64,000 bases of DNA from assembly GCF_017348835.2 (NCBI RefSeq), contig NZ_CP071375.1; one strand, 5' to 3'. Shown piece by piece: positions 24,926 to 26,291 of the stretch. This stretch comes from Escherichia coli. Its GTDB lineage: Bacteria > Pseudomonadota > Gammaproteobacteria > Enterobacterales > Enterobacteriaceae. Position 1 is the first letter of the stretch; each line of letters starts with the position of its first letter. Below the pieces are notes generated by a model. It did no database searches and was not told the DNA's origin. It was given only the letters and a program-made list of their open reading frames with translations. Both the position numbers and the translations under genes were made by a program.

Positions 24926-25879
24926 TTAAAAGGTGTACTTAAGACCAGCAGTAGTGATGAAGTTATAGTTTTCTATGCCTGCACCATTTTTGCTGTAGTC
25001 TGAAGTGTTATCATTGTGATCATAAAGTGAAGTATTACCTTTTTTATTCGTAACCCGATTCCATGCGCCTTCAACATAAACTTTTGCGTTAGGTGTTACG
25101 TAATAACCTGCATTGACTGCAACAGAATAGTAATTTTGGTCTTTGACTTTACTGCGATAAGTGATTCTTTTTCCTGGGTCATAGTGCTCATCGTTATCAG
25201 ATGCTTCCACCCAGCCGCTGTATTTAAATGTGCCACCTAGCTCAAAATCTTCATAACGATAACTTCCAGTCAAGCCAATGTAGGGCATTTTAAAACGTTG
25301 TTTGTAGCCGATTGCTCTTTCTCCATTCGGGAAGGAGCCGATATCATCTCTGAATCCCTCCTCAGAACTGTAGATATAGGAACCACCTCTGGCTGTAAAG
25401 CTATAACGGCTTTCCTGATATCCGGCCATGAGTCCCAGGCGGTAATTGGGTTCGTTGAGGAGCCAGCCTTTGATATTCAGATCAAATTCGTTGGCATAAT
25501 TGAGTTGTGTATCAGGGTGCCTACTTTCATCTGTCCAGGTTCCGGGGTTACTGGAATCCATCCAGTCCTGATCGACCATATTGCCACCTCGGCTGCCGAG
25601 AGTAGTCCAGCCCGCAGCCCCAATAGATATCTGGGGCATCAAATCCCAATTAATTGCACCTTTAATAATTGCAGCGTTATTGAATTTCCAGTCGAGTTGA
25701 CTGACTTTTCGGCCTCCTTCTTCAGCTAGATAAACGCGCTCTTTTGTTTTTCCGCTCAGAGTTCCAAGACTAATGTCCGCATTTATGTTGTCAGGAGTAA
25801 ACGATATAGTCTCGGTAGAAGCAAAAGAGCTGATCGCAATAGGGGTTGTCAGAACTATTCCCAGAAGTTTCGCCCGCAT
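24926..25879 (-). CDS. ompT: Outer membrane protease OmpT (omptin family)
   Basis: 317 aa beginning MRAKLLGIVLTTPIAISSFAS and ending ...TAGLKYTF, matching OmpT as remembered. Confidence 0.95.
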   Translation of the reverse strand: MRAKLLGIVLTTPIAISSFASTETISFTPDNINADISLGTLSGKTKERVYLAEEGGRKVSQLDWKFNNAAIIKGAINWDLMPQISIGAAGWTTLGSRGGNMVDQDWMDSSNPGTWTDESRHPDTQLNYANEFDLNIKGWLLNEPNYRLGLMAGYQESRYSFTARGGSYIYSSEEGFRDDIGSFPNGERAIGYKQRFKMPYIGLTGSYRYEDFELGGTFKYSGWVEASDNDEHYDPGKRITYRSKVKDQNYYSVAVNAGYYVTPNAKVYVEGAWNRVTNKKGNTSLYDHNDNTSDYSKNGAGIENYNFITTAGLKYTF

Positions 25880-25962
25880 AAAAGTTCTCCATTCAATCGT
25901 TTTAATGATTGAATATGTATTTTTTATATCTAACTTAATGAGTCAATCACATATTGCTCCAC

Positions 25963-25979
25963 TGTTTATATTTTGTTTA
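25963..25979 (+). promoter_or_regulatory. Candidate PhoP box upstream of ompT (TGTTTA-N5-TGTTTA)
   Basis: Perfect hexamer direct repeat with 5-nt spacer about 85-100 nt upstream of the ompT start in an AT-rich region. Confidence 0.4.
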
Positions 25980-26291
25980 GTATTGAATGATTATCACAAT
26001 GCGCTATCTGTTTTTGGTTTAATTATCTGTTATTGTTTTATGTTGCGGTTTTACTGTGTGGTTTTTTATGCTTTTGTGGTGTTTTTATCTATTTAAGCGC
26101 CATGCCTTTAAAGGCATATAAGCGAAAATAGCATGAGGTTTATCCTCAATTGCTATGTTTTTTAGTACAAAAAAGAGGGACAAAACTGAGACACATAAGG
26201 CCTCACAATGGCTTGCAAGGCTTTACATGTTTTGAGGTAGTGGGACGTGTGAGCGCAGAGATGGCGCGGTAATTTGTTGACTTAAAATGTC

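Follow-up and report, generated by a model that had tools for sequence, protein, structure and literature searches.

A reverse-orientation PhoP box, conserved among omptin promoters, upstream of a prophage-borne ompT gene in Escherichia coli

Here, we describe an argU-integrated lambdoid prophage of Escherichia coli in which ompT is the final gene, preceding attR, and identify a perfect PhoP box, oriented opposite to the gene, upstream of its predicted core promoter. We propose that ompT is a "moron" in the b-region equivalent of this DLP12-type prophage, i.e., in the segment that runs from the tail-fiber genes to attR, and that it would be transcribed from a sigma-70 promoter of its own (TTGACT-16-AAAAAT) preceded by the reverse box. 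In this model, PhoQ would sense low Mg2+, acid pH, or cationic antimicrobial peptides, giving rise to phospho-PhoP; a phospho-PhoP dimer would bind the two TAAACA/TGTTTA half-sites at 25963-25979 and activate ompT from upstream; and more OmpT in the outer membrane would lead to cleavage of cationic peptides, e.g., LL-37 and protamine. Because the box travels with ompT, a lysogen would gain a protease already wired into the PhoPQ regulon of its host. We consider this explanation, taken as a whole, highly probable. The argU/DLP12 location of ompT and its PhoP box are both already known, and mechanistically the explanation contains nothing new.

The box (TGTTTA-TATTT-TGTTTA) is an exact repeat at positions 25963-25979 on the plus strand of the window, i.e., the whole 64,000-nt stretch of DNA analyzed here, and the plus strand at these positions reads TGTTTATATTTTGTTTA. 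On the sense strand of ompT, the same positions read TAAACA-AAATA-TAAACA, and the orientation is accordingly opposite to that of the gene. The initial annotation had reported a perfect TGTTTA-N5-TGTTTA repeat at this site, 85 to 100 nt upstream of the start; its coordinates and distance were right, the box spanning -100 to -84 from the A of the ompT ATG, and what it left unstated is the reverse orientation relative to ompT. Both halves match the consensus (T/G)GTTTA-N5-(T/G)GTTTA perfectly. The exact TGTTTA-N5-TGTTTA motif has a single match when both strands of the 64-kb window are scanned, and the box is the only site in the 400 nt upstream of ompT when up to two mismatches are allowed.

A promoter scan of 24800-26400 returned one sigma-70-like site, TTGACT-16-AAAAAT at 25946-25919 on the minus strand, which comprises a predicted -35 (TTGACT, 25941-25946) and, after a 16-nt spacer, a predicted -10 (AAAAAT, 25919-25924). 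The box ends 16 nt upstream of this sole -35/-10 pair. In the window strain, transcription from the pair would start at ∼25912, which would give a 5' untranslated region of ∼33 nt and place the box center at ∼-59, and PhoP would act from upstream of the core promoter. An ompT fragment from -220 to +30 is an active promoter (PMC2588501); we searched that paper for a mapped ompT transcription start and none is given, and our search of the available texts found no 5' RACE or experimentally placed start for the gene. An Rfam scan of 24700-26700 matched a partial tRNA at attR only and detected no known RNA element in the long upstream region. The same hexamer is directly repeated, with 5 nt between the copies, in the mgtA, phoPQ, and mgrB promoters, whose PhoP boxes are directly oriented and either overlap the -35 region or take its place. 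By contrast, the ompT box points the other way, with another 16 nt separating it from a good -35 downstream, an arrangement resembling the class of opposite-orientation PhoP-box promoters, among which ompT is listed together with pagC, pagK, mig-14, and yhiW (PMC2681069).

Published work bears directly on PhoP control of ompT. In the available portion of the preprint by Cho et al. (bioRxiv 10.1101/2020.02.28.965145; later Infect Immun 2023), in which K-12 was used, low Mg2+ is reported to induce ompT, and deletion of phoP to eliminate activity, transcription, and protein. The same portion describes the ompT PhoP box as lying on the reverse strand and as conserved among ompT, ompP, arlC, and croP; it reports that an AAA-to-GGG substitution in the gene-proximal half-site abolishes the induction of ompT-GFP that depends on low Mg2+ and PhoP, and it also reports low-Mg2+, PhoP-dependent induction for ompP, arlC/ompTp, and croP. 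Thus, the comparison of a promoter fusion in wild type and a phoP mutant at low Mg2+, which the initial annotation had suggested, is already published there for K-12 ompT. We infer that the site mutated by Cho et al. corresponds to the box at 25963-25979 and to no other, because their site is on the reverse strand with AAA in its proximal half and is conserved in the same three E. coli genes in which we find a single candidate each. In the available text of a further paper, the position at which PhoP binds in ompT, ompP, croP, and pgtE is stated, with citation of earlier work, to lie upstream of the core promoter (PMC12826059). Neither a footprint of PhoP nor an EMSA with it on chromosomal ompT was found in the texts available to our search, and physical binding of PhoP at 25963-25979 is predicted from the sequence. 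Because the box, the -35, and the -10 are identical in the window and K-12, with five substitutions within -188 to +30, ompT of the window is likely to be controlled by PhoP and low Mg2+ as in K-12.

An alternative is that the element is real and that another factor reads it or joins PhoP there, for example by counter-silencing of the SlyA-type/H-NS kind or with EvgA acting upstream; PhoP bound at the box would then fall short of accounting for the regulation by itself. The ompT promoter is AT-rich foreign DNA, a typical H-NS substrate, and the discussion in the available portion of the preprint by Cho et al. gives H-NS as the silencer of the related pgtE and SlyA plus PhoP as its activators. 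A ∼32-fold difference in ompT expression between EHEC and EPEC arises from distal promoter sequence beyond ∼-150 (PMC6854850), suggesting that inputs besides the box matter. Moreover, in one EMSA a 200-bp "OmpTp promoter" fragment, from the ColV paralog, was used as a negative control and showed no PhoP shift (PMC5913352); the methods of that paper name another control fragment and give no coordinates for the OmpTp fragment. However, the element upstream of ompT is a perfect PhoP consensus in both halves with the canonical 5-nt spacer, and expression is abolished by deletion of phoP and likewise by a 3-nt change in one half-site, as reported in the same portion of the preprint, which also cites an effect of EvgA on ompT as running through PhoP (Eguchi 2004). 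Weighing these observations, we consider it unlikely that a factor other than or in addition to PhoP accounts for the element.

A second output of the box can be imagined from its geometry. On the plus strand the repeat is in direct orientation and might also fire a divergent transcript toward attR, and a weak -10-like hexamer, GATTAT, is present on that strand at 25989-25994, 9 nt downstream of the box. If this were true, the divergent transcript would, in a free phage with the layout of 2G7b, cross attP antisense to int, and integration or excision would be coupled to Mg2+ and antimicrobial-peptide signaling. The promoter scan found no plus-strand promoter in 24800-26400, and the GATTAT hexamer is not conserved in the ompP, ArlC, and Salmonella promoters. 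Because of this lack of conservation, the divergent promoter was set aside, and we regard it as very improbable.

PhoP control of ompT through the reverse box is further supported by comparison of omptin promoters. In alignments and side-by-side comparisons, TAAACAAA-N3-TAAACA-N16-TTGAC is kept in ompT of the window, K-12, O157:H7, and UPEC-type strains and also in two free phages, ColV ArlC, F ompP, and the omptins of S. arizonae and S. diarizonae. The spacer and flanks around this element have diverged among the promoters compared, and the distances from the box to TTGAC and to the ATG are maintained. All six omptin promoters aligned have an invariant TTGAC at a constant distance from the box, and AAAAAT or AAGAAT is found at the equivalent -10 spacing in ArlC, ompP, and the Salmonella omptins. 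Similarly to ompT, ompP (F') and ArlC/OmpTp (ColV) each have one box site within 400 nt upstream with up to two mismatches allowed, at -100 to -84 and -101 to -85, respectively, followed by 16 nt and TTGAC; in all three genes, the box is in reverse orientation with perfect hexamers, and the spacers differ. These two paralogs differ from ompT in being plasmid-borne, with ∼70-73% protein identity and with spacer and flanking promoter sequences that are unrelated. The O157:H7 promoter loses its similarity to the window immediately upstream of the box; the two hexamers are unchanged there, with a different spacer between them. In icsP, no perfect box was found; this promoter has only the distal half-site (TAAACAAA) and TTGAC. 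Altogether, the PhoP-box candidate put forward by the initial annotation is footprinted across divergent omptin promoters and fits the functional box published for K-12 ompT in the preprint by Cho et al.

The same comparison bears on whether the repeat has no regulatory role and arose by chance from the AT- and T-rich composition of the intergenic DNA, with the PhoP dependence of ompT being indirect. The 422-bp region between ompT and attR is AT-rich (34% GC) and T-rich on the plus strand, a composition that enriches TGTTTA-like words, and one-mismatch patterns (KGTTTA-N5-KGTTTA) number three in the window where 0.7 would be expected, and two of the three are at sites that seem unrelated (28798-28814 on the minus strand, within the ybcH region, and 58141-58157 on the plus strand). 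However, a perfect box in either orientation appeared in 94 of 100,000 dinucleotide-preserving shuffles of the intergenic region (∼1e-3), and the exact box appeared in 0 of 100 dinucleotide shuffles of the whole window. Furthermore, hexamers and spacings to TTGAC and ATG are kept despite sequence divergence that extends to paralogs with ∼70-75% identity and a Salmonella omptin, and a chance repeat is difficult to reconcile with the loss of induction on mutation of one half-site. Conservation thus effectively refutes a chance origin, which we find scarcely credible.

We also scanned 100,044 species genomes with the composite box-plus-TTGAC pattern GTCAA-N15-17-TGTTTA-N3-TTTGTTTA and obtained 26 exact matches, six of which lie immediately upstream of an omptin gene. 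The remaining 20 look like chance matches in AT-rich MAGs, and thus only the six omptin-adjacent matches are informative. The type strains of Salmonella enterica subsp. arizonae and diarizonae encode an OmpT-like omptin with ∼75% protein identity to OmpT (contigs L014, 2370-3415, and L019, 3486-4531), preceded by a reverse PhoP box and TTGACT in the same geometry as in E. coli. Contigs of MAGs labeled Collinsella, Lachnospiraceae, Bacteroidetes, and Planococcaceae (L017, L018, L023, and L029) also carry ompT or ArlC of the E. coli type, with protein identities of 100% and 73%; these contigs are probably binning contamination from Enterobacteriaceae.

The gene controlled by this promoter lies on the minus strand at 24926-25879 and is a 317-aa open reading frame. 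Its product matches the NCBIfam model NF008222 over residues 1-317 of 317 with 708 bits (cutoff 537) and aligns through residues 21-317 to residues 1-297 of PDB 1I78 ("Protease VII") with 669 bits. The catalytic residues Asp83, Asp85, Asp210, and His212 of the mature protein are present as D103, D105, D230, and H232 of the precursor. OmpT of K-12 differs from that of the window at 3 of 317 residues, and records that are 100% identical to the window annotate 24926-25879 as ompT. By these sequence criteria, the product is an omptin-family outer-membrane protease of the OmpT subfamily. The sRNAs OmrA and OmrB pair with ompT mRNA at nt -15 to +20 of the start codon (PMC2588501), corresponding to 25860-25894 on the minus strand, and the window does not differ from K-12 over this stretch. 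This pairing region is outside the proposed PhoP control and belongs to the same ompT regulatory region.

Several lines of evidence support ompT as phage cargo. First, the prophage that carries it is bounded, distal to ompT, by an attR core at 26302-26346 on the plus strand that is an exact 45-bp copy of nt 33-77 of the tRNA-Arg gene argU; Rfam matches 26252-26335 weakly to part of a tRNA, and ARAGORN detected no intact tRNA in the window. Second, the site is empty in PK5086 and many other genomes, in which nothing lies between argU and envY in the order fimZ-argU-envY; genomes lacking the prophage become similar to the window from 26299-26302 onward, at the argU-envY junction (query position 1600-1603). 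Third, presence is patchy, the proximal ompT promoter being found in 3063 of 5426 complete E. coli genomes (∼56%) and missing from ∼44%. Fourth, in O157:H7 the gene is located elsewhere in the chromosome, and free phages carry the cassette. The phage origin proposed by the initial annotation is therefore upheld, and the gene order of tail fiber, tail-fiber assembly, methyltransferase, alpha/beta hydrolase, ompT, and attR is confirmed. The initial annotation had ended the ompT region at 26290, before attR; ompT does lie inside the prophage, and the attR core begins just beyond that end.

The part of this DLP12-type lambdoid prophage that falls within the window, from the large terminase to attR, covers 1-26346 of a total of ∼43 kb; intD and argU (attL) are upstream of window position 1. 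The window is 100% identical over 1-24900 and 26300-34000 to E. coli PE164, a pig isolate (NZ_CP114128.1), in which the prophage starts at an intact tRNA-Arg argU (attL) adjoining a frameshifted intD and continues with early genes, quuD, an ompC-like porin gene, essD-rrrD-rzpD, and iss. The terminase, portal, capsid, and tail genes, J, a lom-like gene, and the tail-fiber and tail-fiber-assembly genes follow, and the right end consists of a methyltransferase gene, a tail-fiber-assembly fragment, the alpha/beta-hydrolase gene, and ompT, after which come envY-ybcH-nfrA. Other envelope morons are also present, i.e., an Ail/Lom-family barrel encoded between J and the tail fiber (window 17778-18377, plus strand) and, upstream of the window near the lysis genes, iss/bor (31456-31749 on contig L009) and an ompC/nmpC-like porin gene (33540-34622). 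As in K-12 DLP12 (argU ... ompT-pauD-envY), ompT closes the gene series of the prophage, and the argU-fragment attR comes next, followed by envY-ybcH-nfrA. The window prophage is much more complete, with full head and tail modules, whereas DLP12 lacks the segment between nohD and tfaD and has appY beside ompT where the window has the alpha/beta hydrolase. The two loci also differ just outside attR, where envY of the window is split by an IS3-family element that is IS1203/IS629-like with a programmed frameshift (∼26392-28466 overall; envY fragments at 26392-26673 and 27981-28466, IS open reading frames at 26726-27052 and 27052-27939). In strain E2865, envY is intact and the 24700-26600 region is otherwise 100% identical. 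The idea that ompT is a core "housekeeping" chromosomal gene beside rather than inside the prophage, which agrees with the term housekeeping chromosomal omptin often used (e.g., in the available portion of the preprint by Cho et al.) and with the reduction of the prophage to fragments in many strains such as AVS0093, is refuted by the attR repeat distal to ompT, the empty argU-envY site without ompT, the ∼44% of complete genomes without the promoter, the O157:H7 cassette near minCDE, and the free phages with the cassette, and we give it practically no credence.

As prophage cargo, ompT is accompanied by the alpha/beta-hydrolase gene, which is annotated at 23255-24739 on the minus strand (494 aa) and with which it forms a two-gene block. 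The hydrolase-ompT-promoter block is shared, at 99.6-99.9% identity, by the sequenced temperate phages PhiR30_1, PhiR26_1, 2G7b, ev243, PhiR49_1, and Turner. In 2G7b, the block lies between the tail-fiber genes and int, next to attP-int, i.e., in the position of the lambda b region, where the morons lom and bor of lambda are likewise independently promoted outer-membrane/virulence genes between the tail-fiber genes and attP-int. The Nesevirus-like phages 2G7b and ev243 share 99.7% identity with the window in the hydrolase-ompT block, and the cassette itself shows no difference; these are free phages, whereas the window copy is integrated and the integrase of its prophage is frameshifted. In O157:H7, a block of methyltransferase, tfa fragment, hydrolase, and ompT is located in another prophage remnant, near minCDE (2892-9180 on contig L003 of strain RV06, the counterpart of window 22041-25879). 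The O157:H7 block carries an inserted ISEc8, and farther upstream than the PhoP box its ompT promoter bears no relation to that of the window. An alpha/beta hydrolase gene also adjoins ompP on F', and hydrolase and omptin may be a linked pair. In the UPEC-type strain AVS0093, the locus is reduced to argU, an int fragment, a tfa fragment, methyltransferase, ompT, and ybcH.

Between the attR core and the ompT promoter, the minus strand contains terminator-like hairpins with U-runs (26134-26260; strongest stem at ∼26190-26230), and folding of 26120-26300 on this strand gives -39.8 kcal/mol with z = -3.3. An 85-bp piece of this region (26174-26258) is 93-97% identical in phages phi458 and SfII, as the sole match of these records to a 3.1-kb query. 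In the free phage 2G7b, the hairpin region lies just across attP downstream of int, the position of the tI/sib retroregulator in lambda. The hairpins might insulate ompT from read-through.

In E. coli, ompT is an accessory gene, its promoter being found in about 56% of complete genomes, and its regulatory site is part of a mobile cassette, retained in O157:H7 right where the homology block ends and present in free, plaque-forming temperate phages. Box plus TTGAC in this geometry compactly marks the omptin promoters of Escherichia plasmids, of phages, and of some Salmonella subspecies. We suggest that lysogeny by such phages would deliver to the host an antimicrobial-peptide protease under PhoPQ control.
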